Below are positions 1-61,782 of a stretch of 64,000 bases of DNA, one piece after another (within the stretch, counting starts at the first letter, position 1; each line of letters begins with the position of its first letter). The stretch covers positions 35,824-99,823 of the forward strand of contig CAWBQK010000010.1 in the NCBI GenBank assembly GCA_963791045.1, given 5' to 3'. The notes beneath the pieces are model-generated. The model was not told where the DNA came from and did no database searches. It worked only from the letters and a program-made list of their open reading frames with translations. Made by a program: the position numbers and the translations under genes. Source of the stretch: Candidatus Latescibacterota bacterium (GTDB taxonomy: Bacteria > Krumholzibacteriota > Krumholzibacteriia > WVZY01).

Positions 1-1024
1 GGAACGCCCGCTGGATCATCTCCTGATCCTCCCTGACACGCTGCGCGGCAAGTTCTGCGCGTTGTTCATCGAGGGTCTGGCCGTATGTCGCCGAGAACGT
101 AACGGGGTGTGACGATCCCGCCGTTTCTCGGCTGACGAGCCCGTAATCGAATCCAAACCCGTGAGTCGTCACGCCAAGACCAAACGAGAAGTTGCTGTCA
201 TCGAGCCCGACGCGAAGCGCCACGTATTTGGAGAAAGCATACTCGGCACCCGCTCTCAACTTGCTGTCCGCCTTTTCGGGCATGTCGAGCTGGAACATCA
301 CACGAAGCGCCGAGCCATTGCCGAAACCGTGGGTGTACCCCGCGCCCGCCATGATCGTCCGCGGTGTTCGATCCGCCTCGGTGTTGAGCTTGTGTTCGGC
401 GCCGACGAGATCCTGGAAATTGAGCCCGATCGAGAATTTGTCGGCGAAATTCGGGATATACCTGAAACCGAGGTCGACGCCCGGTGACGTGCTCGAGAAC
501 GGGTCCACCTTCTGGTTCACGATCTTTATCGAGGTCCCCGTCGCAATCCGTCCGGCAAGCCACCTTGGAGACCGTTCAAAGGCGTACCCAACCATAACCT
601 GGGTTTCCGAGTATTCCCCCTCCCCCAACGGGCGGCTGAACGAATCGTAGCGGTCGAACGTGTTGGCGACCCGCATGAGTCCGATGCCAAAAGCGCCGGC
701 GTTCAACGTAGGGAAACTTGCGCCGAAGAACGTATACGTCGCCTCGGTGAAATCGCCGTAAAGCGGCATATACATAAAGCTGAGCTGCTTTGTCTGGACA
801 TTCCTGAGCGTCGCCGGGTTCCAGTAGAGCGCGCTGGCGTCGTCCGCCAGGGTTGAATAGGCCCTCCCCAGCGAGATACCGCGAGATCCGGCGCCAAGCG
901 AGAACACACTCTGGGTGCCGCCGTCGCCATCCGCGGCGAACGCATGGACGGGGATCAGAAGCACACACAAGAATAGCGCCGCATACTTAAGAACGTGCTT
1001 GCTGTCCTGATACGATTTGGTCAT
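1..1024 (-). CDS. PorV/PorQ-family (FadL-like) outer-membrane beta-barrel protein with helical C-terminal extension; runs off the left edge (3' partial)
   Basis: Not in the ORF track because there is no stop in the window. Manual translation from ATG 1024: MTKSYQDSKHVLKYAALFLCVLLIPVHAFAADGDGGTQSVFSLGAGSRGISLGRAYSTLADDASALYWNPATL...RAGAEYAFSKYVALRVGLDDSNFSFGLGV...FDYGL. It has a signal peptide and the GARxxxLG..A..ADDASAxYWNPA signature, then helical LDEQRAELAAQRVREDQE. Confidence 0.85.
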   Translation of the reverse strand, partial: MTKSYQDSKHVLKYAALFLCVLLIPVHAFAADGDGGTQSVFSLGAGSRGISLGRAYSTLADDASALYWNPATLRNVQTKQLSFMYMPLYGDFTEATYTFFGASFPTLNAGAFGIGLMRVANTFDRYDSFSRPLGEGEYSETQVMVGYAFERSPRWLAGRIATGTSIKIVNQKVDPFSSTSPGVDLGFRYIPNFADKFSIGLNFQDLVGAEHKLNTEADRTPRTIMAGAGYTHGFGNGSALRVMFQLDMPEKADSKLRAGAEYAFSKYVALRVGLDDSNFSFGLGVTTHGFGFDYGLVSRETAGSSHPVTFSATYGQTLDEQRAELAAQRVREDQEMIQRAF

Positions 1025-1038
1025 GCCGGTTGTCTTTC

Positions 1039-4000
1039 TCATTTCGCCACCGCCATTTTGATCCGCGTCGATTTCGAACCCGCATCGAGCTGGCAGATAT
1101 ACATTCCGTTCCGGACTACTTCGCCCTTCATGTTGCGGCCGTCCCAGGTAACCTCCTGGGGGCCCTCCCCGGTCCCCGGTTCACCCTGTGAAAATTGCTG
1201 CTCGTAGACGAGCGAACCCCGCAGGTCGTAGACCCTTATCGAGACGGGCCCGGCGCTGTCCATAATATAGGCGATCCGCGTCAACTCGGACCCCGCCTGG
1301 AACGGGTTGGGATAGTTGTGCGCGTACTCTTCGAACTCATTGCTCAGGATAACGAGCGGCTGAGAGCGGATGCGGCCGTTGATGAGTTGGCCGGTGTCCT
1401 TGTCGACCACGGCGATCGGCCGCCCAGAGTCATCTTCCTTGACGGCGATCGAGAACGGGCCGTGGAACGAAAGGACGATTTCATCGAGCTGGGCGTTGTC
1501 GGCGATGCTCACCGCGAAGACAAACGAGTCTGCGTCCGCCTGCTCGAGGATGATCCCGCCGGCGTCTATAATCATCGGGTTTTGCGTGATGACTCCGTCT
1601 ATTTGAGATGCAGGATCACCTCGCCGATAAACGTAGAATTCGCTCAGCGTCCGCGACGGCTCGTCGACTTCGCGCCCGTTCTTGTCGAGAACGGTCACAC
1701 GGAAAGTGTCGATCCGGACCCGTTCGGCACTATCGTCGAGGTTCGCCACCTCAACGGCCAACATGTCGATGTCGGATGTGCCTTTTGGCACCACCATCGC
1801 TTCAATTCCGATGTCGCTTGAGAAATCGTCCACGGTGACGGCGTTCGACTCGGTCTGGATCGCGATCGGAACGGGTGAGCTCGAAACAACCGCGGCGGAG
1901 CCGGTGTTCTCATCGTTGGGAATCGAATCCATCACTACGCGGATGAGTTCTAGCGAAGTGAACCTGATGGGTGCACGAACTTGCCACGTTACGGTTTGGC
2001 CAACCACAAATGGCTGCAATGCATCTCCCGATACAATCGTGTATTCGAATTCTGGGTCTAGATCCGGAAGTTCGATCCTAAGCCGCGCGCCGGCCGTATC
2101 CACCGCCGCCAGGCCGAGATTATCAACCCGCGCTTCGATATCAAACACAGTGCCAAACGCCACGCGACCATCTTTTGCCTCATCGGGACTCGTGATCGAT
2201 GCCGTGTACTCGAGACGCGCCTTCGTGACCGTCGTCACCGACAGCGTGTCGCTGAACGCCTCGATGTTCTCGCTCGAGTTCTGGTCGAAGCCGTCATACG
2301 TCACCAGGAATGAGACCTCACCGGGAGTCGCCGGCGCATCGATACGCCATTGCACAGCTTTTTCGCCACCATCGCCGTCACCCAGCGAACGGACGCTCGG
2401 ATCGATCACCTGGCCGACGGAGCCCGACAGGACCTCGAGTGTCGCCGTGATATCCGTCGTGGTCGCCTCGGCAAGCGTCCGTGCCTGAATCGTGTAACGC
2501 TGGTCGGTGCTCACCGAATCGTCCATTGCGCCGTCCGGTGAAATCACCTCAAAGACAAGCGGTGTAAAACCTGCCTGCTCGACAATCTCGAGGGTCACGG
2601 GCGCCGTTCCGGTGGTCACGACGGCCACGTCGCCGCTGTTTCTCTCAATCGGACTGTTTGTAATGTCGACTTCGAGAACCTGGTTCGTCGCGGGGAGTTC
2701 GGGCGCGCGGATGTCCCACTGAACCGGTGCGCCGACAACAAATGTCTGAGTCGCCGGTGATCCCGCGTCGATCGTGAACCCCACCGGCACCGTAAGCGTG
2801 AGGGTTCCCGAGTTGTCCACCAACGACTGTCCGTTATTCGTGACGAGCGCCGTAAGTGTGAACGGCTGCTCCGTGCTCAACGTCGTCGCGTCAGGCGGGA
2901 AAGTAACGCTTGCCGCCACGTTTAGATCGGCCGGCGTCTGAATGAGCATATCGATCCAGCCGTCGTTGCTCGTGTTGTCCGACACGTCCTTGTCCCCGTC
3001 GATATCGTACCCGACGAAGGTCCCGTCAATCCGAAGCGCGCCGGACGGTCCCGTCGTCGTGCCGGTCGACTCGACATTGAAGACGAGCGTATCAACCGCA
3101 CCAGACCGAAGCGAATCATCGCCGGATATCTGGAATACCGCCACATCGGGGATCGTGTACTCGGTCGTCACGTTGCCGGCACCCGAGACACTGATAGAGA
3201 GCTTCGTGAGATCGGGCTTGAGCTGGAGCGCCGCAGCACCGTCGTTACGGACTATCATGCGCACCTGCCAATCCCTCAGCTGCCCTGCAGTGACACTGTC
3301 CTGCGAGGCCAACATATCAACAATAACGACCGCACTCTCGGCGCCGATGGTGACCCGGTCGCCCGCGAGCGTAAAGGATTTTGAATAGTTGTTACCGTTC
3401 TCCGTGCCCACGATGTCAACGGTGACGGGGTAAACACCCTCTGTAAACGTGCTCGGGATCGGGACTTCCTCAAAGGACAGCGTGGTATCGGTTCCCGCGA
3501 GGATCGCGCCTACCTGAGACGCGTCTAGACGCGGTTGGATCGTCGTGACTCCGTCGGTGAACGAGAACTTCGTCCGGTCCGCGTCGAGCACCAGTGTCGC
3601 CGCGCCAACGATCTGGCTTACGTCGATTCTGAATGTGGCCGGCTCGCCGGCATTGACATTCTTGGGAAGCAGGGTGCCGGCGATATAGGTCGGATTGGGC
3701 TCGAGCTGGACCTCCACGCTCCCCGCCTGCTCAGCGGGCGTCACTGGTGTACTCTGGTTGAGCTCGGTTCCCTCGATGTGCGCGGTGAAGGGCTGATTGC
3801 CGAAGCCGTCGCTGAAATCCTGGGTTTGCGGGATCGTAAACGTAAGGATCGTCGACGCCCCACCGGCAAGCAACAGCGATCCCACAGGGCCCGTGACCCG
3901 CGCGGGAATGCCGTTCGCAAACTCGATATAGGTTCTCGCCGGATCGTTGCTCAGCTGCACCTCCGCGCCGCCGTCGTTTGTGACGCCGACGCTGATCGTC

Positions 4001-7000
4001 CAGTCGTTCTCCTGGAACTTCGTCACCGGGTCCTGCGACGGCGTGACGGACGTAATCCGGATATCCCCCGGTGTCTGAACCGTAACCTCGTCGCCCGAGA
4101 CCGGGCCGACCGTCTGTTCGTCATCGGGGCTGTTTGCATCCTCGGCCGTCACCTGTCCGCTGATGGTATAGGTGTCGGGCGCTCCCGTGTCGGTCACGTC
4201 GAAGACCAGGGTATCCAGCTCGTTCTCCTCGAGCTGCACACCACCGCCCTGAAGCGCGTTCCGCGGCGTCGCGTTCCATCCGGCATCAGCAGGATCGAAC
4301 GCCACCGACGCCGAACCCGGTAGTAAGAGATCGAGCGCCGCTTCGCCGCTGTTCCGGACCACCATCCGGATCTGCCAGCTGGTCTGTCCCTCGGTGACGG
4401 TAGGCCGGCCTGGCGTGATACCGACGATCTCGAGGACGCCGGGCAGCTCGACGAAGAGCGCCCCCATCCCACCGGTCGACGTGTCGACCGAGATGGGGTC
4501 GTTGTTCACGAGATTGGTCGCATCGAGGAAACCCTCGATCGTATAGGCACCCGCAAGAGGCAGTGAACTTCCATTCACCACGACGTCAAACGTGATGCTG
4601 CCGTTCGTGCCGCCCGCGAGGGTGTCCGAGCCTGAGTCGAAAACGCCCGGCGGCGTGAATATAAACCGGCCGGACTGGTTGACCCCCGCCCGGATGAACT
4701 CAATATCCGTGTCGTCGAGACGAATGTCCGCGCCGCCCCTGTTTTCGACGTTGAGCGTGACGGTGAAGGACGCCGATTGATTGTTCGTGATCGTGTCCTG
4801 CGAGGTTGTGGTTGACGCGATCGCGACATCCGTCGCTTCGAGAACCTCGATCGATTGGGCAGTCAACATGAACTCGCGCTTGAATCCGTTGTCCATGCCG
4901 ACCACGCGGACCCGCGGTATGTACGACGGACTGGCATCAGACGACACGAGGGTCGACTGGAAGGTCAGTGTTTCCGAACCCGCGCCGGGAATCGTCGTCT
5001 CACCGACCAACGGGGCATCGAACGATTGGCCGTCGAACCAGAAACGTGTCGAGTCGGGAATGAGAACGAGATCGGCGCCGCCGTTGTTTGTGGCGGTAAA
5101 CGAAAAGCTTACCGAGGTTTGGCGGCTCACATCGAGCGGCACCAGACCACCGCCGTATGTAATGTCGGCCGGCGTCTACGACGTCTCACCAGGTCATCGG
5201 GATCAACATCGGCCGTGTTCAGGACCGTCGGAGAACGACCCGCCGTTCTCGTACCCTCCAGGTGAATCTCAATCGGGATAGCTTCCCCCGTGAAAAGCCG
5301 TTGGCACAACCACATCGTCGAATACGATCGTCTGCTGGGCCCCTCCGCTGATCGCAACGGGCGCCGCCAAGAGCGCGGTATACACGTATGCCCGTGCCGT
5401 CGTTGAATGTGATGAAGCTCAACGTCTCGTCGAGCGTCACCGTGGCTTGCGCCGGTATTCTGAACGTCAAGAGAGAATCCATAACTGTCGTCCGCGCGTC
5501 ACGACAGGCGGATCGAGAGTGCTGCCGATATACGCGAGATCCGCGGCGCTTTCGATCGTCCAATTGCCGAGCGGATTGGGCGATACGTCATCGTCACTCA
5601 CCGGCGCGCCGTCGACAGTCCCCGACACGGCGGCGTTGATCGTGAACGTGCCGAGTTCGGATGTCGGTCGCACGGTCACGCTCAGGGGAATCGTGACCCT
5701 CTGCGGGGCCTGCGGGGTTCCGGGGGGAACCGAAACCGCTGGAGAAATGGTTTGTGAGACACCGTCGTACGCGCCGCCGGAGAACGTAAAGGACACAAAG
5801 TCGATGAGCGCCTCGACAGGGCCCTGGTTCTCGACGGTCACCCGGATGACTCCCGTCTGTCCGCGGCTTACCGGCGAGTCGGCGCTGATGCCCAGAATCT
5901 CGATCGCCGTCAGGCGGAGCGAATTGACCGGGAGTGAAACGCCCGCCTTGGCATAGTCGGACTCGTATTCGTCCCGTCCGACAAAATCGACGACGGGCGT
6001 GTACTGCCCCGGATCCATTGCGCTGCTGATCTGACTCGATGAAAACGTAAGAGTGTCCGTCTGCCCGTCAAGGACCCACGTCGCCGCCGTGAGGAACGCA
6101 GTGAAGGTCTCATTCCCGTCCGAAAACTTGAAAGCCGTTCCACCGAAAAGCCGCACATTGGTGGCGTTTTCGGTCTCGACATTAACGGTGAAGCCAACTG
6201 TCTGCCCGGCCTGCACAATCGATGGGGTCGGCCCGGAAACGACAGTGAGGTTCGGCACCGGCGCGAAGTACGACGTTGCCGTCGTCGTGGCCACGGGATT
6301 ATCGAACGCGGTGAGCGTCACAACCGCCGCCTGCACCGTCGTCTCCACTATCGCGCCCGACCGGAGTATGAGCGAGACCGTCCCGTCCGACGCGGTCGCC
6401 CGCTGGTGGCCCGGCGCGGGATCGACGTCGTCCGATTGAATCGTCCCTCGATCCGTCGAGACGGTAATGAGCGTGCCCGTGCTGACAATATTTCCGTAAG
6501 CATCCTGGATGGGGTCTGTCTGAATCGTGACCTCACTCGCGCCGTTCGCCGTGATCGTATCGGGCTCCGCCGACACAACGATGGCATCCGGTATCCCCGG
6601 CTCGATCGCAATGGGAACACTCGTTCCCGTCGCCCCACCGCCCTGGGTTTCCGCTTCGATTTGTATCGGTCCGACGGTCTCCCACGCGAGTGTTGTCGCC
6701 GCCTGTCCGCCGGCGAGCTGTATGGGGTTCGTGCCGAATCCCGTGATGGCTCCGCCCGGGAGGACGCGGAGATCAACAAAATTTGTCGCGGTCGTCACGA
6801 GATTGTCCTGAGCGTCGAGCGCCCGGACGGTAAATCCGAACGCGGTCCCCGCTTCTTCGGTTGTCACATCGGGAATAACTTCATAACTCGCAATGTCGCC
6901 GGCAATCGATGTCACGGTAAACGTCTTCGTCTCGAGCGCCGGTGGATTCCCGTCCTTGATGCTCGAACGCACGTTGTGCGCGCCGGCCTGGCCCGACACG

Positions 7001-10000
7001 GTTAAGTCCACGGTCGCGACACCGGACGAATTCGTGCTCGTGATCCCGCCGTCGGACAGCGATGCGGTTCCATCCGGAGCGAGTGTAATCGTGAATACGA
7101 CGGGTTCACCGGATACGGGATTCCCGTACTGGTCCGTGACCGTCACCGCGAGCGGCTGAACCTGCCCGACGGGGACCAACGTACTGTCTCCGGACGTGAT
7201 GGTTACCTCGTAGGCCGTTGCGGGCACAATCGTGATCGTTGTGCTTGTATCTGCCGGCTCTCCGCCGCCCGTACTCACAGTGAGGCCGGTCTGTTCGACA
7301 ACATCATCGCTTACCGATGTTGTAAACGCGCCGTTCGTTAGTTGTCCCGAGGGCGGGCTAAAAACGGGGTTCCCCGTCGTGCTTCCGAATACGACGGTGG
7401 TAGCGTCATCGTCGACGGGGTTGTTGTTTGTATCGTAGGCCTGAACGGTCACGTTGACCGATTCGCCGGCGGTCCACGTGGTCTTGTTCGGACTGAATGT
7501 GAAGAGATAATAAGAAATCGCCGTACTCGCCTGCGTGGTCACATCGAATTCGACCGCGTCGGTATAGGTGCCGTTGTCGAAGTTTGCGCGGACGCGGTTG
7601 AGACCAACGGTTGATCCCGTCGTGAGAACCGTCGAGACCAGGCCGTTTACGTCGCTCGTATCGGAGTCCGGCGCAACCGAGGCTCCGCCCGGATTCTGGA
7701 TGACCGAGAACGACACGGTCTGGCCCTGAACGTTGTTGTCGTAAATATCCCGTACTTCCGCCTCGAGAGGAGGCGTATCGTTTCCAGCAATGATTCCCGT
7801 AAGTGGATCCGTGATTCGCGAGAGATGGTGGGCAATATTGGGCGACACTGTGACGGTGCCGCTGTACCCCGGCGATCCCGGTGCGCCGGAGACGCGAACC
7901 TTCATCGTCCTCGCTTTGTTGTACGTTTCGCCGACGGCGGCCTGACCCGACATGAGCGTCGCGCTCCGAACCGTCAGCTGTTCTCCGGCGGGAAGCTCGG
8001 CCTGTGTCCCCGCGTCCACAGCGTCGAGATCAATCGCGCTGTTCGCCCCGAGAACAGTATTGCCGTACTGATCTTTCGCGGTGACATTCACAACGAACGG
8101 ATTACCGGCTACGACACTTACCACCGTGTTCACCACATACGTGGAGATGGTACCCGTATCGGTGATTTGAATCGTTTCATCGCCGGACCCAAGCACACTG
8201 CCGTCGTCCTCCGCCAAAAAGTCCCACGTGCCCGTAATAAATCCGCGCGCGTAGACGGTGACCTGTCCGCCGCTCAACACGAACTGCGTTGTCGGGGTTC
8301 CAAAATCCGAGGCGCTGAATACGAGACCGCTTCCCGATTCGGGGACGATGTTGACGGTACTCGTGTTGGCACCGTCAAGATTTCCCGTCCCGTCAACCGC
8401 CTCGACAAGAAACGAAAACGTCTGACCGGCGTTCTGGGGGTCGGGCGTCGGTCCCGTGATCCGCAGAAGCGTCGCCTGTCCAACAACACTCGTGAACGTG
8501 ACCGGGCTCACCGCGGCGGTGGCCTGATCGCCAAAGGCATCGATCGTATCTGACTGACCCGCGGTGGCCGGCGCCTCATAGAGCACCGATATCTGGCCAT
8601 TCGAATCGGTCAAACCGTTTTGGAGCGTAGGGCCGCCACTGGTCGGGTTGGTCGATCCGGGGTCGGATTTGAGAGAACCCTGGGCAATATCGGAAATAAA
8701 AATCGAGACCTGTTTGTTCGGAACCGCGTTTCCATACGTATCAACGAGCGTCGCCTCGACGGGCGGAGCATCCGTCTCGACGGTGACATTCTGGCTCGCG
8801 GGGGTGAGCGTGATCTGGGTTCCCGCCCCCGGCGTACCCGTCGCACCGAATAGCACATCGACGGCAGGCGAACCGGTCAAATAAGCGGTCGCCGTATTGG
8901 AGCCGGTCGTCGTGCCCAGTCGCCAATCCTGGCAGGTTGCTTCACCCAGAATGTTCGTCGTCGCCTCGTTCTCGACGGGGCCGCCCGAAATGACATCGAT
9001 TAAACCGCCGCCCGACACGACTTCAAACGTCACCGACGCGCCGTCGACGAGGTTGTCGTAGTCATCCTTGACACGGACGACGAGATCGTTCGCGACGAAC
9101 TGGTTGACCACGGCGGCTTGAGTGTTACCCGAGACGATTTCGATTTGCTTCTCCGGACCATTGTCGACGACGATGGACCCCGAATTGTCCGACACGGGAC
9201 CACTCTCCGCACCGAGCGTAATCGTCTCCTTTTTGAAGACCGTCACGTTCAAGACAGCGTTCCCGCCATCGAGCGGATCGAATGTGTAGAATTTGCCGCC
9301 GCCATCCAGTCCAATTGTCCCCGACCCCGAACCTTCGGACCAGTTCCCCTCCGTCCCCGTCGTCGTTGTCGACACGTAGACTTTTCCCGCGTAATCGGTA
9401 ATCACGTTTTCTTCCGCATCCCGGGCCTCGAGCGTCACCGGCTCGGGCGTTCCCGCCACGGCGTTCCCATCCACCGTCCACACAAACGTCGCCACCGCAC
9501 CCGGCGTAAAATCGATCTCGACCGTGCCGGTGATCGGCGTTCCGTCGATCGTCGCGCTTACAGTCCTCGGACCGGTCGTCGTGCTCGCGAGGCGGCCCGT
9601 CGTCGTCCCGTCGACGCCGGTCAGCGTGGTCGGCTGCGTGAGAATCGCGCCGTCACCCGGCGGGTTGATCGAAAGCACAACGAGCGCGCCTTCGATCAAG
9701 TTGTCGAATTCGTCTTTTGCCGTGATTGTGATGATGCTCTCGTCGGAGCCGTTCGCTTCGACCGAAAGCGGATTGGCCGCAATCTCGCTCAAATCCGGGT
9801 CCGCCGCGCCCGCGATGAACGCAACCGTCGCGCTGTCCGCGATCTCCACACCGTTCGCCGTTGCTCCCACCTTGACCATCTCGGCCTTTGTGTTCCGTAC
9901 AATTCCCTGGGCCTGGCCCGTCGGATCCGTCGGAGCCGGCGGGTTCACGGGGAGCGCACTTCCCGTCACACCGAGCGACACGCTGGCGCCGGATACAGGG

Positions 10001-11365
10001 TTTCCGAATTCATCCCTCACGATCACGCTTACGGGGCTTTGATCAACGCCGTCCGCGACCGCTTCCGGATCGGTCGTCATGACCGTGGACATAGTCGAAT
10101 GGACGGAGGCCGCATCGACCATCACGGTCGTCGTGCCGCTCAAGCCCGGCAGGAGTCCGTCGTCGGTGAGCATGATCACGCGATGCGGCTCGTTCGCGTT
10201 CGTGTCCGTATTACGGTAGTCGATCACGGCGGTCTGGTCACCCGTATTCATCTGCAGAACCGCAACCGGGGTCGTGTGATCCGACGGAAGATAAAACTGA
10301 CCCGAGGAAGACTCTTCCGGAGCGGGCGAAATTTCGGAAGCGTCTGCGGTGGGGGATGACGACAACAGGACCTGGCGGTTCTGCGTCAGGTTCGTTGGAT
10401 TTCCATAGGCATCGACGACATCGATCGTGTAGGACAAAAATTGTCCCGCCGTGAATGTTGCGCCGTTGGGAGAAAGGATGAGTCTTGCCGGCGGCCCCGG
10501 AATTACCGACTGCATCTGGGTCGCGTCTCCCCAGGATTGACCATTCGCTGAAGCGGTCAGGACGGGAGAACCCGGGATCGTATCCGCATAGAAAAACGAC
10601 ACACCCGAAACCCCTGCCGGCATCAAAACACTGGTGATCGGCGCGCCTTCGCTCGTCGCGGCAAAAGAACCTGTTCCCGATGTCGACGAGAGGTCGATCC
10701 ACTGACCGCTCGCCATTTCGCTCACGTTTCCATACACATCGCGGGCTTCAACGTAGATCGGTCCGCCCTCGCCGGTTGTCGCAAACACAAAGGCCGTGCT
10801 TGTAAACACGAGTTCGACGGCCGGCCCGCCTTTGAGATTGATCGTCGGCATATCGTTAATCGGAGACACCGCGACGCCCGTCGGGTCGCTTTCCACAACA
10901 AACGCGACCGCTGGATTTGCCGCCGTTGGCGGGGTAACGCGTGCACCCGGATTGGCGCCGCCACTGTCGTCGCCATAGACGATGGTGATAAGTTTGGGTT
11001 CGGGAAGGTCGTCGATGCCGATTGTCAAAATCTGCCCGGAAACCGACGGAGTCAATACGGCGCCGTGATCGCTGCTGACGGTGACATAACCCGTTGAGGC
11101 GGGGTTTGTGACCTGTGGTGGCGCCCAACCGGCGGGAAACGTTACGGCAATGGTCCCGTTCGTGAAGTTATCGTCGGGATCATAAACAATCGTCCACGTC
11201 CCCGGCGTGATCAACAACGCCCGAGTCCGGCGTTATTGTCGCATCGCCGCTCCCGGGCCCGATCAATCCCGCGATCGCGGGCGCCGTGTTGCCGAGGAGA
11301 AAGAATGCAAAGGGGATAAGTATCAACAAACCGCGTAGTGGTCTAATAGCACGCAATTGAATCAC
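1039..11365 (-). CDS. Giant (~3400 aa) secreted Ig-like/invasin (Big-1-like) repeat surface protein with C-terminal FlgD-Ig/T9SS-like sorting domain; interrupted by several frameshifts
   Basis: The signal peptide (GTG 11365, IQLRAIRPLRGLLILIPFAFFLLGNTAPAIA) joins ORF 5467..11217 via a 1-nt shift near 11212. That ORF links to ORF 1039..5142 through an indel-rich patch at ~5150-5500. Recurrent VxDxYGNxV Big-1-like motifs; C-terminus HNYPNPF...IRVYDLRG...WDGRNMKGEVVRNGMYICQL...KMAVAK. Confidence 0.8.
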
Positions 11366-11410
11366 CGTATTGGTTACAGGCCTTCGATTCCAATTACAAA
11401 TCGGATGGAG

Positions 11411-11419
11411 ATTATAGCA
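11411..11419 (-). promoter_or_regulatory. Putative extended -10 promoter (TGcTATAAT) for the giant adhesin gene
   Basis: Minus strand reads GTGCTATAAT about 45 nt upstream of the GTG start; no good -35 at 17 nt. Confidence 0.4.
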
Positions 11420-11778
11420 CGAACCCGTCAACAAGCTGCAAAATGCGTGCCTTAGTTCCGGGTGGGCGCCGAGCAGGACTTTCTCGCGCAAAATCAACGG
11501 GTTCCGTCGCCGATCGACCCCGATTTTGCACGATCGGGCCGTTTATCCGGGTGTAATCCCCCAACCGATAGCGAAATTGCAATGAAAACGGGAAGTTAGA
11601 CCCACCGGGGCCCCCTGGATCGGGCAAACCCGACCCGCGGGCTAGCATAACCCTAACCTATTGGCAAAAAATATTTTACGCTGGAATTATTCTTGCGGAT
11701 TCTGTCAGCCGGAACCCCATCCCTGAGATAGCCGGACGAGAAACAATCCCGTGACGCGTAACATGTTGATATATAATA

Positions 11779-12162
11779 CTATCGAGGCCGAACCCGAACG
11801 ACCGAGTTTTCCCCGGAGAAACCGTCTTCGACCGTCTCCGGATTGCTCGGATCCGATGTCCATTCGGTGCCGTTCACAACGAATTTGTACTCGTAGACCC
11901 CTGGGGGGAGGTTGTAGTACAACGTCCATTGTCCATCGCCATTCTCGTCGACCATCGGGTCGGCGGTTGGTGACCAGTTGTTGAAATCGCCGACGATATA
12001 GACCTTTTTTGCATCCTGGTCGAAATACCGGAAAATCACTCCGTCCTCGACGATTTCAGGGCCCGCACCAATGCCCCCACCTTTCGAGCCGCCGAAGCAA
12101 CCGGCGAGCGCAAAAGACAGGAATACAACGCCAAACACCAATCTCGTATGTTTAATACTCAT
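11779..12162 (-). CDS. Lipoprotein with CBM48/AMPK-beta-like glycogen-binding domain
   Basis: Start MSIKHTRLVF at 12162; lipobox LAGC; domain AKKVYIVGDFNNW...GQWTLYYNLPPGVYEYKFVVNGTEWTSDPSNP...DGFSGENSVV. Confidence 0.85.
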   Translation of the reverse strand: MSIKHTRLVFGVVFLSFALAGCFGGSKGGGIGAGPEIVEDGVIFRYFDQDAKKVYIVGDFNNWSPTADPMVDENGDGQWTLYYNLPPGVYEYKFVVNGTEWTSDPSNPETVEDGFSGENSVVRVRPR

Positions 12163-12169
12163 AAGTAGT

Positions 12170-12610
12170 TTACCGGATTTCCAGCCGGTCGCTGTCGGAG
12201 TACAAAATGACCTGCGAACACGTGCCTGTCGGGCCACCGGATACCTCTTCAGGCACCCCCGGATCAAGATGCCACGTGTTTTCGTCCACCCAAAACAAAT
12301 ATTTGTACCGCCCTGCCGGCAACGCAACGGATATTTCCCAGATACCGTCGCTATCCTCATCCTTCATCAAACCGATATTGGCCTCCCCGGCGCTGCCGTC
12401 TCCTCTCGCCCAGTTATTCTCGGGCCAGTTACCGGCGAGCTGAACCCTTCGCGCCGACGGAGAGTAGAACCGGAATACGATTTCACCCTCCTTGACGGCG
12501 GGTCCCGCGCTCAGACTTCGGGGGGCGATATATCCGCAACCGGCCATCGTGCAGATCAGCACGGCGGCGATGATCAAACCTGTTATTGCCCGTATACGGA
12601 GCATCATCAT
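12170..12610 (-). CDS. Lipoprotein with CBM48/AMPK-beta-like glycogen-binding domain
   Basis: Lipobox MAGC; ARRVQLAGNWPENNW...DGIWEISVALPAGRYKYLFWVDENTWHLDP. Confidence 0.85.
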   Translation of the reverse strand: MMMLRIRAITGLIIAAVLICTMAGCGYIAPRSLSAGPAVKEGEIVFRFYSPSARRVQLAGNWPENNWARGDGSAGEANIGLMKDEDSDGIWEISVALPAGRYKYLFWVDENTWHLDPGVPEEVSGGPTGTCSQVILYSDSDRLEIR

Positions 12611-12620
12611 TCGGATTGTC

Positions 12621-14654
12621 CTAGAAGAACACGATCACTTCAAGTTTTAACACCCTGTTGTCCTGAAGGGATTCCTCCTGGCGGTGAATTCCCTCGCCCA
12701 GAACCGCCGCGTCGGCACGTCCCACCCCCACAGGAATCGCCTGACGAAGATGTTCAAGACGGCCGATATCGGAATACTCGTTGATCACCGGATCGAGTAC
12801 CACGGGATCGAACCCAAACCCCACACTTGCTTCCACCCAGTCCCTCCGGTACCCGGCTTCAAGGTAGAGCGAATAAAATGTTTTGTTGAGCGACCACGAG
12901 TCTTTGTCGTAAACGGCAATTCGCGAGTCGAGCTGACCGTAGATATATTTGTAGATCCGATGATCCACCACCGCCCGGAGATCCGCGTATTCGACACCAC
13001 CAAAAAATTCCCGCATCACCAGTGCGCCGCTCGCAAATACGGAGGTCCGCGCCGCGTCGGGAATTCGCGACAACCGCGACAACACGCGCTCGTTCCATAC
13101 AAACGCGCCCCCAAACTGGGTGCTTCGCGGGTTATCGAACACGACCATATTCTCCACGGTCAATTTGTCGCGGTAGTCGAGCCAGAAGTTTCTCGCGGGC
13201 GTGAAGAAGTGGAAATCATCGGGCGTGGCGCCGTAGTCCTGATCGAGATATCCAAGTCTCGCTGTTGCTTTCCATTCGTCCGCGCCATACTCGAGGTCAA
13301 CGCCCGTCGTTTGAATCGTTGCATCCGCGGGCTCGTACAAACCCGCTTTAAATTCGAAACGGCTCCACGAGTAATACGCGCGCGCCGTCCACCGCGATTT
13401 TTCGTATTCGAGCGCTCCATGCCAGCGCTTGCTCGTCTGCATTGGAATCTTCTTGTCCGACGGGTCGGTATTTTGACCGACCGAAATGTCACTACCCGAA
13501 ACGGAAACCGGGTATGTCGACACCGCGTCGGTCCGGACATCGGCCGTCGCCCTTCCCAGCCCAGCAACGGCGGCGAGATGCGACAAAAACCTCCAACGGA
13601 GCCACACTACGTCGGCGCCCCAGAATTCACGCGTTGTGTATGCCGTCGCCACGCCACCCGAATCGCCTTGTTCAACCGAGGCCAGTGTCCCCGGTTGAAA
13701 TCCCTGGTTACCGCGTTTGACATATCCGAGCTTGAAACTCCCCAGGTCGGCAAATACTTCGAACCCCCACGTATCCATCCCGCCAAATGTATTTTCGTAA
13801 CCGTACACCGGCTTATCGCTCTCGCCCGCCAACTCTGTCGAATCGACGGCAACGGGCGGACCGGGACGCGTGCCGATCTTGTCGGTGTAGAGCGCGCTGA
13901 ATTCGACGTTCAACGGGAGCGGCAGCACCGCGGCGACACCGTGGCGTTCGTATCCGGCGTTGTAATCGAACACGCCGACTTTTCCAAAAAGGTTAAACGG
14001 GTCGGACGATGTCCAGGTGGTGTCGTTTTCGAACCCCCTCACAACCTTGTCGTCAAAATGGAGGTCGATGAACCCGCGATCGAAATCGACCTGCGCTTTC
14101 AATGGCGAGAGACTCCACGAATCGTTCAACGTCTTGAAGTCGACGCTCGCGTCAATCCGCTTGCTCGAATGTTTAAATATAAAATCGATCCGCTGGTCGG
14201 AACTGGTAGCACCGTCATCGAGCAAAAACGCCCCCGCATACCGAAGGTGCGGTTGAAGCACCGCGACGACTTCTTTCTCTACCTCCTCGGTCGACCCGAA
14301 CGCAAGCATCCCACCCCGCTCTTCGAGAACCAGCACGGATCCCTTGGCCGCGTCCACCGGCGGGTTGTCGGGATCCACGACCCACTCCCCATCGACCACA
14401 AACTTGTAACGGTAGGTTCCCGCGAGAAGAAACAGATACACCGAGTACTTTCCGTCGACCACTTCCATTTTTTCCAGCGTGGGGTTCCAATTGTTGAAAT
14501 CCCCAACAAGGAAGACGTTCTTCGCTTGGGGCGCATCGAGCGTGAAAATAACTTCATCATCGACAATACGAACCGCCGCTCCGGACGTGCCGGCAATCAT
14601 AACCGCCGCGAGCACGCAGACGATGAGGCATATGCAACCGGGCCGCTTTCTCAA
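12621..14654 (-). CDS. Outer-membrane beta-barrel protein with N-terminal CBM48-like glycogen-binding domain
   Basis: Signal peptide; APQAKNVFLVGDFNNWNP...GTYRYKFVVDGEWVVDPDNP; aromatic-rich amphipathic strands; ends LKLEVIVFF (terminal Phe, BAM-type signal). Confidence 0.8.
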   Translation of the reverse strand: MRKRPGCICLIVCVLAAVMIAGTSGAAVRIVDDEVIFTLDAPQAKNVFLVGDFNNWNPTLEKMEVVDGKYSVYLFLLAGTYRYKFVVDGEWVVDPDNPPVDAAKGSVLVLEERGGMLAFGSTEEVEKEVVAVLQPHLRYAGAFLLDDGATSSDQRIDFIFKHSSKRIDASVDFKTLNDSWSLSPLKAQVDFDRGFIDLHFDDKVVRGFENDTTWTSSDPFNLFGKVGVFDYNAGYERHGVAAVLPLPLNVEFSALYTDKIGTRPGPPVAVDSTELAGESDKPVYGYENTFGGMDTWGFEVFADLGSFKLGYVKRGNQGFQPGTLASVEQGDSGGVATAYTTREFWGADVVWLRWRFLSHLAAVAGLGRATADVRTDAVSTYPVSVSGSDISVGQNTDPSDKKIPMQTSKRWHGALEYEKSRWTARAYYSWSRFEFKAGLYEPADATIQTTGVDLEYGADEWKATARLGYLDQDYGATPDDFHFFTPARNFWLDYRDKLTVENMVVFDNPRSTQFGGAFVWNERVLSRLSRIPDAARTSVFASGALVMREFFGGVEYADLRAVVDHRIYKYIYGQLDSRIAVYDKDSWSLNKTFYSLYLEAGYRRDWVEASVGFGFDPVVLDPVINEYSDIGRLEHLRQAIPVGVGRADAAVLGEGIHRQEESLQDNRVLKLEVIVFF

Positions 14655-16144
14655 AAATCACCCCGGAGTGTAATAACCCACTGCGAAGACCCCGAACGGA
14701 GCACGCCAAGATCCCGGTCCTCGAGAACGAACGGATCATCCCCGAAGTACGAGCGTCCATACCCGACGTACGCAAATATGCGGTTGCTTGGCCGGTACTC
14801 GAGACGGAAGAACGTCGCCTGAGAGACTGTAAAATCCCGACTGAGAAGAAACCGCCAGTGCAGTCCCCAATCCGGCGTAATGACCATCTTGCCGTCCCAC
14901 GCAAACAACCGTTCGGAATAAACCGTGTCGAGATCCTTCCACATGATATGGGCGCCGGTATGAAGTTTCTTAATCCGGTAACGCACGGCGCCGTGAACGT
15001 AGTTCTTTTTGGTTTCGATGGGCTGTTCATCGATCCGCCCCACACCCCCCCTGAGGAAACATTCCATCCCGTTCTTCAGAGCCGTCCATGCGCCCGCTTC
15101 GACAAAATCTCTCTCTTCGTTTTCGAGCACGCTGCGGGCGCTCTTGTGATAGAGAAGGCGTCCGCTGACACTCACATCGGTGGCGAGAAAATATGCCGCC
15201 GCCGTTTGCCCGACCTGCGACCCTCCCGGCATACCCAGGTCGCTCACAAACTCTTCGCCAACGGCCTCATACTTCCAAACGACACCCAGTCGCCCGGCAT
15301 CGGTTACGGGTATCGATCTCAACCTGACTTCGGCAAACGCCGCGCCGCCGCGCGGGAGAACCTGGCTGAAGTTGGTGCCGTCGTACGCGCCCCAATCGAA
15401 CGATCCACCGGGGAGAAAGAACCCCGAATCCTCGTATCCGGATTGTTGATATGACACCGAGACAAACGCGAGTTTCCACGCCGAACTCAGCTCCGTCTTG
15501 ATCAACGCGTGGTTAAGCGGACCATGAACACCGGGGTCATCCATAAGATACGACGCAGAGAACGATGCGAGTCTGTGCGAGTAGAGAGCCTTCAGATAAG
15601 AGGCGCTCCGCGCGTCGCCCGGATCGTCTCCAAAAAGAGAGTACAAACCGGTGATGTCGAAACCGGACCGGGTCTTTATATCGACACGCGCACCGCGGTT
15701 GTCTCCCGATTCTCCCGCCCGGTCATCGTCGATAAGGGGCGTTGTAAAATCGCAAACAAAGAATCGCCGCTCGTTGGCGAAGAGGCGGATTCCGTAGTCC
15801 CACGTCTCGAGCTTCTGGCTCCACAGATAGTCGCCCTGTTCAAATCGAAATCGTTTTTGGGTGTCGTTGTCGCCCACAAATCCCCAGTAACCTGCCCCCT
15901 TGAGATACAGGCTGCCGTAACGGGTTTCGAGCGCCTTGAGATCGAGCATCAAACGAGTCCGGTCGATCGCCGCCTGGGTGGTGGCGTTCCACGGATACGG
16001 GTTCGACTGTTCATCGAGTAACAGCTGATACTCGAACCGGCCGCCGAACTCAACATTTCCTAAACGCGCGGCCTCCTGCGCGCGGACGGCCGGCGGCGCG
16101 AGCGCGACGAGGAGAACCAGTATGGAGATACCCCTCCTTACCAC
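14651..16144 (-). CDS. Hypothetical outer-membrane beta-barrel protein
   Basis: Signal peptide ending AVRA; amphipathic strands; ends WVITLRGDF; overlaps both neighbours. Confidence 0.7.
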   Translation of the reverse strand: MVRRGISILVLLVALAPPAVRAQEAARLGNVEFGGRFEYQLLLDEQSNPYPWNATTQAAIDRTRLMLDLKALETRYGSLYLKGAGYWGFVGDNDTQKRFRFEQGDYLWSQKLETWDYGIRLFANERRFFVCDFTTPLIDDDRAGESGDNRGARVDIKTRSGFDITGLYSLFGDDPGDARSASYLKALYSHRLASFSASYLMDDPGVHGPLNHALIKTELSSAWKLAFVSVSYQQSGYEDSGFFLPGGSFDWGAYDGTNFSQVLPRGGAAFAEVRLRSIPVTDAGRLGVVWKYEAVGEEFVSDLGMPGGSQVGQTAAAYFLATDVSVSGRLLYHKSARSVLENEERDFVEAGAWTALKNGMECFLRGGVGRIDEQPIETKKNYVHGAVRYRIKKLHTGAHIMWKDLDTVYSERLFAWDGKMVITPDWGLHWRFLLSRDFTVSQATFFRLEYRPSNRIFAYVGYGRSYFGDDPFVLEDRDLGVLRSGSSQWVITLRGDF

Positions 16145-17046
16145 TCGCCCACCCCCTCTTCATCCAATTCCGGAAGCGATATCCCCACCGAAAAAAGATA
16201 GCTCAGCCCGAGCATGTCGTGCGATACGACACCGGCGTCGATTACAACGTTGGACACCTTGAGACCGATTCCGCCGGTGACGCTACCTTCGCGAAGACCG
16301 GACCGCAATCGCAGGAGCTTCCCCGCCTTGACTTCGATACCCAAGAGGTCACGCCACTTGCCGTCCTGTCCACGCTCGCGTTCATACACCATCGATACAC
16401 GCCGGTCCCAATGATACGCGACGCCGATCGCGTGGACCATTTCGAGACTCGTCGGGCCGGCCCACGAGCCGCCTTCACGTCCGTTGAGGGCGAAATCAAA
16501 CTCGGGCTCACCGATGTTGCGAACCGTGTACCCGAAACCGATGACGGGAAAGGGCCGCAGGAGAACGGACAACACTCCGGAGACGGCGGTTTTCGAATCG
16601 GCTACACCGGGGTACGCGACATGGGTGACATCGATTGCGCCGCCAACCGAGAGCGAGGCGTCCTGCGACGTCCGTATCAGATCGCGGCCGTAGGCCAGCG
16701 AAAAAAGGTCTTCGGAAGTTACTTCGGAGAGAGAGAATCGATGCCACGACAAACCAAACGCGCCGATTTTTGTCGGTATCACGCCGGCGAGAAAATACTC
16801 GTTCAGGTCGGTCAATCCGTATGGCTGGGAAATTGTCGAGAGAACGCTCGCCGTCGGGATTTGCGTCAACCCCGCAGGGTTGTAGATGACGGCGCTCGCA
16901 TCGTCCGCCACGCTGACAAACGCGCCGCCCATTGAGAACGCGCGGGAGGAAACATAGAGACGCTCGAAGTGGGCATCGGCCGTCACCGGCACGAGCACAG
17001 CCGCAAGGATAATCAGAAGAATGGTTGATCGCCGCCGAATTATCAA
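16138..17046 (-). CDS. PorV/PorQ-family outer-membrane protein
   Basis: TTG start at 17046 with GGAG upstream; signal peptide; SSRAFSMGGAFVSVADDASAVIYNPAGL signature. Confidence 0.8.
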   Translation of the reverse strand: MIIRRRSTILLIILAAVLVPVTADAHFERLYVSSRAFSMGGAFVSVADDASAVIYNPAGLTQIPTASVLSTISQPYGLTDLNEYFLAGVIPTKIGAFGLSWHRFSLSEVTSEDLFSLAYGRDLIRTSQDASLSVGGAIDVTHVAYPGVADSKTAVSGVLSVLLRPFPVIGFGYTVRNIGEPEFDFALNGREGGSWAGPTSLEMVHAIGVAYHWDRRVSMVYERERGQDGKWRDLLGIEVKAGKLLRLRSGLREGSVTGGIGLKVSNVVIDAGVVSHDMLGLSYLFSVGISLPELDEEGVGEW

Positions 17047-17059
17047 CGTGTCACTCCGT

Positions 17060-18211
17060 TTACCGAATGACCGCAAACGATGCCCTGGCCGTATTCTTGA
17101 TCGAACCGCTTCCCGCTCCCCCGGAGACCGCGATGATATAGACACCGCCGCCGACCGTGTCGCCGCGATCATCTTTGAAATCCCACTCGATCCCGAACTC
17201 GCCTTGCGAAAAATCGACAGGTTGATCGTCGATCAAATTGCGGACGGCATACCCCGCCGATGAAAACACCTTTGCCGTCACATAGACCGGCTCCGTGTAA
17301 TCATCCGTATCGAGCACCACCGGAAATGTCGCCGGGACACCGTCCGACGGCGACAGGAGTTTCTTCTCCAGCTGAATTCTTAGCGAGAACACCTGTCTCA
17401 CCGTCGTGTCCTGCGCATCCGCTGATACGGCGTACGTCGCCTCGACCCTCGGCGAGATTCCCATATCGAGGATTCCATCCGAATCCGAATCGAGCGGAAT
17501 TCTTACATGATTGTCGGTGATTGCAACGCGTGTCGAATCGTTCTCGAGGACAATAGAAGGATCGGGTGCGGCGTCACCCGCCCCGGTGCTTTCGCCGCCC
17601 GTAATGACGGCGAGAACGCCGAGGACCGGCTGCCCGGGCGGAACACGAACCCCCTCGGGCGCACGTTCATAATCGCCAAGCTGGTCCCACGGTATCGCCA
17701 CCTCGAGTGCGCCGCCGTTCACCCCATCCTGGACATACATCGACTGGTACTTCCCGTCCTCGATCAGATTGAATGGGCTGACACAATCGACATAACCCAC
17801 AACCGGCTCAGGAGACGTCCGGCTTACGCGCAGCAGGAGATTCGGGGACATTCCGCCAAATTCGATATTCCTCCGAAAATACTCCTGGGTGGCGAGATTC
17901 TCGACGCCGCCACAGGACACGTCGAGAAACAACATCAAAGTGCTCGTCATGGTAACGGCGGGTACAGCCACGTATATATTGTAATTATCCCATGTTACGG
18001 CAATCGCTTCGACCTCGTTATCGCGTCCCCAACGGGAATCTCCTGGGCGTTCGCGAAACGCCGTCGCCGAGTCGAGCACCCACTCGTCATCCTCAAAGTC
18101 GACGGGGCTGCCATCGATGATTATGCGGGAACGGAGGTCGGGGGCGGTCGCTCCATAAACCGCCCCTGTGTGGAGGAGCAAGGCCACAGACAGAAGAATA
18201 GCACGAATCAT
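17060..18211 (-). CDS. Secreted protein with DOMON/CBM9-like sugar-binding-type domain and C-terminal FlgD-Ig-like sorting domain
   Basis: Signal peptide; IIIDG...DSRWG..NEVEAIAVTWDNYNIYVAV...LFLDV...LEVAIPW resembles DOMON-like domains; C-terminus KVFSSAGYAVRNL...WDFKDDRGDTVGGGVYIIAV...ASFAVIR. Confidence 0.65.
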   Translation of the reverse strand: MIRAILLSVALLLHTGAVYGATAPDLRSRIIIDGSPVDFEDDEWVLDSATAFRERPGDSRWGRDNEVEAIAVTWDNYNIYVAVPAVTMTSTLMLFLDVSCGGVENLATQEYFRRNIEFGGMSPNLLLRVSRTSPEPVVGYVDCVSPFNLIEDGKYQSMYVQDGVNGGALEVAIPWDQLGDYERAPEGVRVPPGQPVLGVLAVITGGESTGAGDAAPDPSIVLENDSTRVAITDNHVRIPLDSDSDGILDMGISPRVEATYAVSADAQDTTVRQVFSLRIQLEKKLLSPSDGVPATFPVVLDTDDYTEPVYVTAKVFSSAGYAVRNLIDDQPVDFSQGEFGIEWDFKDDRGDTVGGGVYIIAVSGGAGSGSIKNTARASFAVIR

Positions 18212-18702
18212 TTTGGCGAGTCCCTCTCCTCATCCAGGCGCGTGAGACCTTCGAGCATCAGATGGTCGAGAGGGATATCGATCCGGATTTCCTGAGACAC
18301 CGGTGTCTTGCCGGTAAGAAACGTAAACGAGCCTTCCTGCCAGCGGACGACTTCAAAAATCACATCTTTGATCTGTTCGATCACTGCGCGTCGAAGATCG
18401 ATTTCGTTTATGTGCCCATCTTCGATCAGGACAGCTCCTATCCGCTTTCTCTTTTTGCCGCGCTTCAAAAGCACCGCGTCAAGAAGCTCCTGATTAATGA
18501 TTCCCGCCCTTATGAGATACTCGCCAATCTTCACCGGCCTGTTCTTTATCCCGGCAAAGGTAACGTTTCCATCTTCAAAGAATATGCTCGCCGAATTTTC
18601 GCTCCCCTTGAGCTTCAATTCACCCGTCGCCACGGCAAGGTTGAGCATCTGCATCACCGCAATCGGCTGGAATACCGCGAGATTTCCCTTAAGATCCGGC
18701 AT
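18208..18702 (-). CDS. DUF4388 (PatA N-terminal-like) domain protein
   Basis: LKGNL...VMQMLNLAVATGELKL...IFFEDGNVTFA...IGEYLIRAGII...WQEGSFTF...HLMLEGLTRLDE pattern. Confidence 0.85.
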   Translation of the reverse strand: MPDLKGNLAVFQPIAVMQMLNLAVATGELKLKGSENSASIFFEDGNVTFAGIKNRPVKIGEYLIRAGIINQELLDAVLLKRGKKRKRIGAVLIEDGHINEIDLRRAVIEQIKDVIFEVVRWQEGSFTFLTGKTPVSQEIRIDIPLDHLMLEGLTRLDEERDSPK

Positions 18703-19486
18703 CTTGCGTACCTTTCTTGATGTGTCTCACCCCGATGATCAGTTGGGAGACGATCACCGACCCAAATATAACCCCGAGAAACGGATACAACACCCCGCCA
18801 AACCGGGCACGCCACTCCATATCCGTTTGTGAAAGTACAATGATCAGTATACCAGCGACGGCCTGGAGTACACCAACTATTTTGCCCACCGGCGTCGCCT
18901 TGAATTTCAACGGCCCAGCAACAATCCGCGCAACCACCGCGCCGGCCAAAAGAGTCACGTATCTCGCAAGCAGGACTATCAGCACCCACGCTGGGATGAA
19001 GCCTCTGACAAAGAAAGCAGCAAAAAGCCCGGCGGTCGTAACAATGTCAGCCGCGGGATCCATGACGACGCCAAACTCGGTTTCCCGGTGCGTCCGCCGC
19101 GCGACAATCCCGTCGGCGATGTCCGTCAAACCCGACAACACATACAATGCGAGCGCGCCCATCATTCGATCGTGGATGACGAGCATGACAATCGGCACGG
19201 CGAGGAGAAAACGGGAGAAGGTGAGCTTGTTTGCCCAACCGAGGACGGGTTGTCCACCGCCGGAGCAGTCGCACAGAAGCCCGATGTTGAACAGGACAAA
19301 CGCGAGGAAAACCACACCGCCCACAGTGGAAAAGATCGCGATTGTTGCAAAGAGTCCGGGGCCGGACGACAAACAGGCGACCGCCAGAATGGCGAGGACC
19401 ACGATGTGGCACAACATAAAAAACCGGACGATCTCGTAAACGAGCGTCCGGTTTTTGTCGATTTCAATGATCGAGCCCACTGTCAC
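18689..19486 (-). CDS. CDP-alcohol phosphatidyltransferase family protein
   Basis: ANKLTFSR and DIADGIVARR...FGVVMDPAAD match the DxxDGxxAR...GxxxD motif; multiple TM helices. Confidence 0.9.
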   Translation of the reverse strand: MTVGSIIEIDKNRTLVYEIVRFFMLCHIVVLAILAVACLSSGPGLFATIAIFSTVGGVVFLAFVLFNIGLLCDCSGGGQPVLGWANKLTFSRFLLAVPIVMLVIHDRMMGALALYVLSGLTDIADGIVARRTHRETEFGVVMDPAADIVTTAGLFAAFFVRGFIPAWVLIVLLARYVTLLAGAVVARIVAGPLKFKATPVGKIVGVLQAVAGILIIVLSQTDMEWRARFGGVLYPFLGVIFGSVIVSQLIIGVRHIKKGTQDAGS

Positions 19487-22134: not shown

Positions 22135-22198
22135 CTGTCACTCGCTTTCGGTTGGAATGATTTTTCTGGGATAATAAATCCGGACCTGATGGCCAGCG

Positions 22199-24028: not shown

Positions 24029-24108
24029 CAGATCCTTTGGTGGACTGCGGCCACGTGTTGCCGGTTCGCCTCACACCCAAAGCGAACCGGATAAGCTGTT
24101 GTTACTAA

Positions 24109-24137
24109 ATAATATCACATTAGGGCCCGCATGTCAA
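24109..24137 (-). promoter_or_regulatory. Sigma70-type promoter for the S8 peptidase (possibly reading into the ppdK operon)
   Basis: TTGACA-17 nt-TATTAT with TGn extension. Confidence 0.7.
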
Positions 24138-24225
24138 ATAATCGAGCGGTGTCGGGCGAAAAGAGGTTGGGTTTTCGGCGTGGGGGGGGGTGCACAGGAG
24201 TGGAATCCGGACCAGGCCGAAGGAA

Positions 24226-28002: not shown

Positions 28003-28024
28003 AGCTATTGTCCTCCTGTTGCGC

Positions 28025-61769: not shown

Positions 61770-61782
61770 GGTCCGTCTCCTT

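Follow-up and report, generated by a model that had tools for sequence, protein, structure and literature searches.

The DNA analysed here, a 64,000-nucleotide stretch (the window) of the genome of a Candidatus Latescibacterota bacterium (assembly GCA_963791045.1, contig CAWBQK010000010.1), carries between positions 11779 and 18211 six co-oriented, tightly packed open reading frames (ORFs), g1 to g6, all on the minus strand, which together form a module of predicted outer-membrane β-barrels, CBM48 lipoproteins and a secreted protein. Latescibacterota and Krumholzibacteriota are uncultured heterotrophs widespread in sediments; the source genome is 80.9% complete with 5.8% contamination. A preliminary description of the window, made from its letters alone, had reported six contiguous genes separated by 13 nucleotides or less, or overlapping, and the ORF coordinates bear this out: g1 and g2 lie 13 nucleotides apart, g2 and g3 overlap by 7 and g3 and g4 by 4, and gaps of 10 and 7 nucleotides separate g4 from g5 and g5 from g6.

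The first gene, g1 (17060..18211), encodes a secreted protein of 383 residues with a signal peptide and a C-terminal region of ~90 residues that, by its family profile, resembles FlgD_ig and the sorting tails of the type IX secretion system (T9SS). It is followed by g2 (16138..17046), assigned by hhalign as a divergent outer-membrane barrel of the PorV/PorQ family (FadL-like), by g3 (14651..16144), which in its AlphaFold2 model is a 497-residue barrel of ~24 strands with no soluble domain and the C-terminus ...RGDF, and by g4 (12621..14654), a 677-residue protein in which Pfam and AlphaFold2 place a signal peptide and a CBM48/AMPK-CBM domain ahead of a ~22-strand barrel ending in ...VIVFF. The last two, g5 (12170..12610) and g6 (11779..12162), are CBM48 lipoproteins, each with a lipobox ...AGC; from Pfam and alignment, the sugar site is degenerate in g5 (Lys to Leu, Asn to Cys) and of the canonical AMPK-β type in g6. 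The g2 start codon is TTG at 17046, and the longest possible ORF would begin at 17172.

Upstream of g1 lie, in turn, a gene for a DUF4388 protein with a tandem MshE-type c-di-GMP-binding motif (18208..18702, minus strand; PF14332, 96.8 bits), one for a CDP-alcohol phosphatidyltransferase (CDP-OH) and one for PPDK. The DUF4388 protein passes the tandem-motif model NF053729 (40.7 bits against a cut-off of 38) and is predicted to bind c-di-GMP; its stop codon overlaps the g1 start by 4 nucleotides, and it is translationally coupled to the module. A scan for promoters and terminators over 4800-22500 is uninformative, with 4 and 19 sites compared to shuffled means of 6.9 and 19.4.

Other structural claims of the preliminary description also stand. 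The CBM48-like domains of g4, g5 and g6 all score above their Pfam cut-offs, the Phe-terminated barrel (g3) and the CBM48-fused barrel (g4) appear as barrels in their AlphaFold2 models, and the Pfam scan of window ORFs brings up no glycoside hydrolase, no TonB-dependent receptor and no SusD; seven further ORFs (≥150 residues) match no family. Of its "novel porins", g2 is a divergent member of the T9SS-associated PorV/PorQ family, and for g3 and g4 we find no Pfam or NCBIfam barrel family. For the label "DOMON-like" of g1, Pfam gives no match on the window protein, and language-model neighbours, which carry CBM9-type domains and T9SS tails, provide a lead.

Conservation of the module in two arrangements

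We fetched 34 loci from 31 genomes, covering all nine sampled families (f1-f9), and find that the module is conserved as a unit across Latescibacterota and Krumholzibacteriota, in two arrangements. Type A, the arrangement of the window, is represented by 19 loci from 19 genomes of families f1, f2, f3, f6, f7 and f8, with the order PPDK-(CDP-OH)-DUF4388-(g1)-g2-g3-g4-g5-(g6)-adhesin. Genes g2, g4 and g5 occur in this order in 19/19 type-A loci, which is far above chance, and DUF4388 and PPDK lie upstream in every one of them; g6 together with the adhesin is found in 15 and g1 in 12. Type B comprises 15 loci from families f4-f9 with the order g2'-g3'-g4'-g5', in none of which DUF4388 is matched. 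A homologue of a secreted GH13 enzyme of ~870-1230 residues with 2-5 CBM48 copies accompanies 14 of these 15 loci (domain content from a Pfam check of four proteins), and a 1400-1765-residue CarboxypepD_reg/Big_1/Glucodextran_C protein is encoded directly upstream of g2'. The f9 loci contain a second GH13, a lipoprotein, and one type-B locus (L061) also holds genes for a MalK-type ATPase and a GDE_C (debranching-enzyme) protein. Many type-B loci (L054-L063, L066, L067 and L048) resemble complete α-glucan utilisation loci without SusC/D.

The two arrangements are related gene by gene: g3 matches g3' at hhalign 97.7%, and g4, g5 and g2 also cross-match between types. As judged by these matches, type A is an adhesin-linked paralogue of a four-gene core, g2-g3-g4-g5, of which type B is the other copy, and both copies occur in genomes of f6, f7 and f8. 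The g4 phylogeny rests on a quick tree, in which 14 of the 15 type-B sequences form one clade with an SH-aLRT support of 100, the type-A sequences do not group as a single clade, and the copy from an f4 locus (L050) groups with type A of f3. A type-A locus in a one-contig genome, G201 (L033, 11932-12222), has a g5 truncated to 96 residues, and g6 and the adhesin are found neither in the following 8 kb nor elsewhere in that genome; this locus may be a natural loss variant.

The giant adhesin, the T9SS and the c-di-GMP-motif protein

The preliminary description overlooked the tightest partners of the module, namely the c-di-GMP-motif protein on one side and, on the other, a giant T9SS adhesin, both on the minus strand. 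The N-terminal part of this Big_1/Invasin_D3 adhesin occupies 5467..11497, with a main ORF at 5467-11217 (1916 residues; four Big_1 and four Invasin_D3 stretches, and two weak families besides) and a signal peptide in the frame 11180-11497, joined to the main ORF via a one-nucleotide frameshift at ~11211. In two public runs (X1, X2), the contigs are one base shorter at 11211 and have T instead of A at 11213; the frameshift is probably an assembly or strain artefact, and the gene intact in the population. The C-terminal part (1039..5142, 1367 residues) has no signal peptide of its own and ends in a T9SS type-A sorting domain at residues 1277-1363, which passes TIGR04183 with 24.3 bits against a cut-off of 23. 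A 325-nucleotide break at 5142-5467, across which protein-like reading continues in shifting frames, parts the two pieces; in relatives, single ORFs match both, with open frames of up to 5918 residues, and the pieces are likely one gene broken in this assembly. We also considered an inverse autotransporter and rejected it, with no LysM or inverse-autotransporter barrel family matched in the adhesin at E ≤ 0.001.

A search with the N-terminal 240 residues finds the adhesin in 72 of 208 genomes, mostly as a single match per genome: f1 (7/12), f2 (16/23), f6 (1/1), f7 (38/43) and f8 (7/8), weakly in f5 (2/10), and not in f3 (0/7), f4 (0/12) or f9 (0/91). When the place tables are compared by hand, 66 of the 72 matches lie within ~4 kb of a g4 match on the same contig. 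The other six comprise three genomes in which the adhesin is on a different short contig (G052, G060, G065), one with no g4 place listed (G050) and the two weak f5 matches.

The adhesin gene is followed by a PorV/PorQ-family barrel (2..1042, minus strand; NF033709, 91.4 against 90 bits) that runs off the start of the window. A second pair of this kind, a T9SS-tailed FG-GAP-like protein (61783-63954; Por_Secre_tail, 35.8 bits) and a PorV/PorQ-family barrel (60855-61799; 172.8 bits), is found elsewhere in the window, and the succession of cargo and barrel appears to be a recurrent arrangement in this genome. The T9SS itself is present in the genome, as evidenced by SprA_N, PorU (554 bits) with PorV adjacent, and ~45 tail-like ORFs. 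Upstream of PPDK, the window holds a run of secreted proteins at 22199-32288: an S8 peptidase with a T9SS-type tail (TIGR04183, 22.5 against 23 bits), a 444-residue tailed protein, and a 625-residue lipoprotein and two paralogous proteins of 777 (with a lipobox) and 793 residues, these last three with no family match. The S8 peptidase and the 444-residue protein recur near the module in relatives.

CBM48 domains and glycogen-binding residues

The CBM48 domains are identified with scores of 49.5 bits for AMPK1_CBM in g4 (cut-off 26.8), 31.0 bits for CBM_48 in g5 (cut-off 22.4) and 51.1 bits in g6 (cut-off 26.8), and the lipobox Cys of g5 is invariant in 25/25 aligned homologues. g6 aligns with the AMPK β CBM at E 1.8e-9, which equates its W63, K93, W101 and N119 with W100, K126, W133 and N150 (AMPK β-1 numbering). 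The substitutions W100G and K126Q in AMPK β-1 are reported to abolish glycogen binding (PMC6274970). The corresponding site of window g5 reads W-L-W ... C, and that of window g4 has W-K-W, with the N150 region falling outside the alignment. These residue patterns make g6 the only fully canonical glycogen-type site predicted in the window, g5 having lost two of the residues.

Residue counts extend this picture to the family. Among type-A copies, g6 keeps W-K-W in 15/16 and the Asn in 16/16, while g5 has neither the Lys (0/19) nor the Asn (0/19); g4 has W-K in 13/13 copies from f1-f3 and no Lys in the seven from f6-f8, in all of which the second Trp is also lost. W-K-W is present in 20/21 type-B g4', in 12/12 g5' and in every one of the 44 CBM copies from 13 GH13 proteins, and the Asn is also found in the GH13, g4' and g5' copies save two alignment-edge cases. 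The canonical residues kept by g6 fit the proposal that the module binds glycogen or maltodextrin; those of g5, which lost both Lys and Asn throughout type A, do not.

At the g6/g5 junction, one contig of public run X1 has 262 different bases in place of the 264 at 11996-12261, which suggests a divergent strain or a paralogue. Elsewhere in the genome (contig C9:261396-264295; L068 7397-10295), a row of genes encodes an extracytoplasmic function (ECF) sigma factor, an anti-sigma factor and a Porin_4-like barrel, the last two each bearing CBM48 at the C-terminus; this row may be an envelope glycan sensor. Because CBM48 is also fused to an anti-sigma factor and a porin, the fold appears to be used broadly in this envelope.

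The barrels and g1

g2 scores 39 bits against the curated NF033709 cut-off of 90, and its comparison with the genome's PorV (encoded beside PorU) and the two window members above that cut-off gives hhalign 99.7%, with E 5.6e-27 over 257 columns; these values point to a clearly homologous, divergent member of the PorV/PorQ family. Both g3 and g4 give confident AlphaFold2 models. That of g3 (32 homologues; pLDDT 82.7, pTM 0.74) has ~24 strands and no additional domain, and that of g4 (69 homologues; pLDDT 90.1, pTM 0.80) shows a β-sandwich at residues 26-119, ~22 long strands across residues 132-676 and helices at 631-664. At a threshold of E 0.1, neither g3 nor g4 has a Plug or TonB_dep_Rec match in Pfam; in g4 the N-terminal position is taken by CBM48 and g3 carries the barrel alone, unlike plug-bearing transporters.

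Foldseek searches of the PDB with g4 and g3 return generic barrels alone, at TM scores of 0.3-0.5 (~0.3 for g4), and no specific characterised family. In VIA-align, 22-strand TonB-dependent transporter barrels rank first for g4 at Z 15-16.6 (the SusC-like BT1762, 16.6; Cir, 16.0; BtuB, 15.9), with 350-390 residues aligned in the top rows at a root-mean-square deviation of 4-5.7, and porins close behind at Z 15. These fold searches on a model would give g4 a size class (22-strand, SusC/TonB-dependent transporter-sized) and not a family. Co-folding of g4 (residues 26-677) with g5 (residues 26-146) scores 0.00, which is neutral on binding.

We ruled out that the g3 and g4 barrels are paralogues (hhalign 0.7%). 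g3 is represented by 52 cluster representatives among 1.84 billion proteins; it diverges fast, so that a single-sequence search finds almost only f1 (9/12) and f2 (22/23), and it was dropped as a phylum-wide marker. For g4 there are 74 full-length or near-full-length homologues and for g1 there are 83, the named ones in each case being Latescibacterota or Krumholzibacteria; g4 matches in 195 of the 208 genomes include CBM-only matches and do not count modules.

The C-terminal ~90 residues of g1 match FlgD_ig in 20 of 39 family members. The family profile matches FlgD and, weakly, the C-terminus of PorU (E 0.015), and window g1 itself gives only weak matches to the PorU tail and FlgD. The large protein encoded upstream of type-B g2' has a C-terminus homologous to this one (hhalign 95.9%).

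α-Glucan enzymes in carrier genomes

The source genome has no GH13, GH77, GT35 (glycogen phosphorylase) or GT5 match, and we discarded its single GH57 match (30.9 bits) as a GH38-like mannosylglycerate-hydrolase homologue. Across the phylum, 136 of 208 genomes have a GH13 match, among them 85/91 of f9; GH13 is matched in 1/12 other f1 genomes, weakly (E 5e-6), and in 6/23 of f2, five of them weak (E 1e-6 to 1e-8). For f1 the corresponding counts are 0/13 for GH15, 1/13 (weak) for GH31 and 3/13 for strong GH57 matches, and a one-contig relative, G200, which carries the module (55% identity), gives no GH13, GH15, GH31 or GH57 match. Co-occurrence of the module with GH13 or GH57 divides: the type-B paralogue stands beside GH13 in 14 of 15 loci, and the source genome gives no GH13 match and no genuine GH57. 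Seen through its neighbouring genes, the module family as a whole is tied to α-glucan, and the window's lineage appears unable to digest it.

A proposed adhesion and glycan-capture apparatus

We tentatively interpret the module, which would descend from a module of α-glucan loci, as the part in the outer membrane on which an apparatus for adhesion and glycan capture is based, a function which we infer from these data and to which we attach somewhat less than an even chance. In such an apparatus, the retained tail of g1 would keep it attached to g2, in the way that PorZ attaches to PorQ and PorU to PorV, and g6, with its glycogen-type site intact, would hold an α-glucan-like polymer at the cell envelope. 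In g5 and g4, the degenerate CBM48s may gate or adapt the two wide barrels, that of g4 being placed in the periplasm because it precedes the first barrel strand, and the module and the adhesin would form a c-di-GMP-associated device for attachment and glycan capture. Attachment is preferred to starch feeding because the lineage appears to lack α-glucan-using enzymes. The preliminary reading of a SusCD-independent α-glucan system survives in that the module is a conserved outer-membrane unit with a paralogue beside GH13; α-glucan use by the window copy is not supported.

Several observations weigh against the apparatus. At 80.9% completeness and 5.8% contamination, the absence of the enzymes from the source genome is not proven, and strong GH57 matches in 3/13 f1 genomes make α-glucan use possible in that family. 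The glycogen-type residues in g6 and in g4 of f1, f2 and f3 fit real α-glucan handling equally well. g1 is absent from 7 of the 19 type-A loci, and its pairing with g2 is therefore not essential. The synteny with PPDK and the CDP-alcohol phosphatidyltransferase may be mere gene-order conservation.

Nutritional α-glucan uptake independent of SusCD, in which the CBM48 lipoproteins catch starch or glycogen and the plug-less g3 and g4 barrels pass oligosaccharides to the periplasmic CBM48 of g4, is an unlikely function for the window copy. It accounts well for the secreted GH13 beside type B, for the lipoprotein GH13 of f9 and the MalK-like and GDE_C genes of L061, for a W-K-W site shared by the GH13 CBMs (44/44), g4' (20/21), g5' (12/12) and type-A g6, and for a g4 barrel of SusC/TonB-dependent transporter size. 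It does not account for a genome that lacks GH13, GH77, GT35 and GT5 matches and whose GH57 match is GH38-like, for the rarity and mostly weak scores of GH13 in f1 and f2 and the near absence of GH15 and GH31 from f1, or for G200, which has the module and none of these enzyme matches. The Lys is moreover lost from g5 in 19/19 copies and from g4 of f6-f8 in 7/7, and the module is locked to the adhesin, not to an enzyme.

An accessory role in adhesin export, sorting or anchoring, in which the CBM48 folds bind protein and not sugar, as plugs or adaptors of wide barrels, strikes us as doubtful. The Plug protein of the T9SS has a CBM48-like part that is seated on SprA, and the CBM regions of g4 (E 1.4e-3) and g6 (E 2.7e-4) match the NCBIfam model "T9SS plug", but weakly and far below the cut-off. 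The one-to-one adjacency of the adhesin, the kinship of g2 to PorV/PorQ and the fusion of CBM48 to an anti-sigma factor and a porin in this GH13-less genome all argue for such a role, and barrels of 22-24 strands with no plug domain need some gate. The same core, however, serves GH13 loci whose enzyme has no T9SS tail, and the retention of sugar-binding residues in 15/16 copies of g6 is unexplained if no sugar is bound.

A bolder proposal, which we hold to be improbable as it stands, is that the core represents a third kind of outer-membrane glycan machine beside LamB-type porins and SusCD, in which two wide, plug-less barrels of undescribed families, gated by CBM48, would thread long α-glucan chains inward without TonB, with the periplasmic CBM48 acting as a ratchet; type A would add the adhesin and the c-di-GMP receptor, making attachment and capture one regulated device. 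It is very unlikely that the CBM48 modules are an envelope tether between the outer membrane and a glycan of the periplasm or wall, comparable to OmpA/Pal, an architecture mimicked by CBM48 at a barrel N-terminus, at a porin C-terminus and in small lipoproteins, given that the genome already has eight OmpA-type domains, that CBM48 is to our knowledge not known to bind peptidoglycan, and that a tether leaves the GH13 and adhesin linkage unexplained.

The module joins elements usually studied apart: CBM48 sugar-binding domains, sorting barrels of the T9SS, and a giant adhesin together with a c-di-GMP receptor. Should the barrels move glycans across the membrane independently of TonB, they would be a new route of polymer import; if they anchor the adhesin, they would show the organisation of T9SS cargo in bacteria other than Bacteroidota. 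The contrast of type A with type B is a natural experiment for both questions.

Comparison with known systems

We found no published description of this system in the literature on Latescibacterota, CBM48 and type IX secretion. In PMC6851124, CBM48 appears as a label on GH9 cellulases.

The Sus system of Bacteroidota offers one comparison. Like SusE/F, g5 and g6 are small outer-membrane lipoproteins made of starch-binding-type modules, and the ~22-strand barrel of g4 falls in the size class of SusC, although the Z of 16.6 for BT1762 ties with those of other TonB-dependent transporters. An adjacent GH13 is shared with Sus by the type-B paralogue only. g3 and g4 differ in having no plug domain and no TonB box, the locus lacks SusD, the module has two extra barrels, g2 and g3, and an adhesin stands in the window where Sus has a glycoside hydrolase.

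The Bacteroidota pairs PorQ-PorZ, PorV-PorU and, in gliding species, SprF-SprB are T9SS attachment pairs, in which, as here, a tail-bearing secreted protein is encoded beside a barrel of the PorV/PorQ/PorP type. Their counterparts in the window are g1 with g2, the adhesin with the barrel at 2-1042, and 61783-63954 with 60855-61799. g2 differs in scoring far below the family cut-off and in sharing an operon with two unrelated large barrels and CBM48 lipoproteins, and no sortase or lipopolysaccharide-delivery function is implied for g1 or g2.

With the CBM48 of AMPK β (PDB 1Z0N, 4Y0G), g6 shares the equivalents of W100, K126, W133 and N150, but is a secreted envelope lipoprotein rather than a cytoplasmic kinase subunit; the equivalents of K126 and N150 are lost in g5 and in part of the g4 family. 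With the inverse autotransporters intimin and invasin, the adhesin shares its Big_1 and Invasin_D3 stretches, but it ends in a T9SS tail, and no inverse-autotransporter barrel is matched. What is new at this locus is a pair of barrel families and an assembly that have not been described, joined to components of known kinds, PorV-type anchors and SusE/F-like binding lipoproteins.

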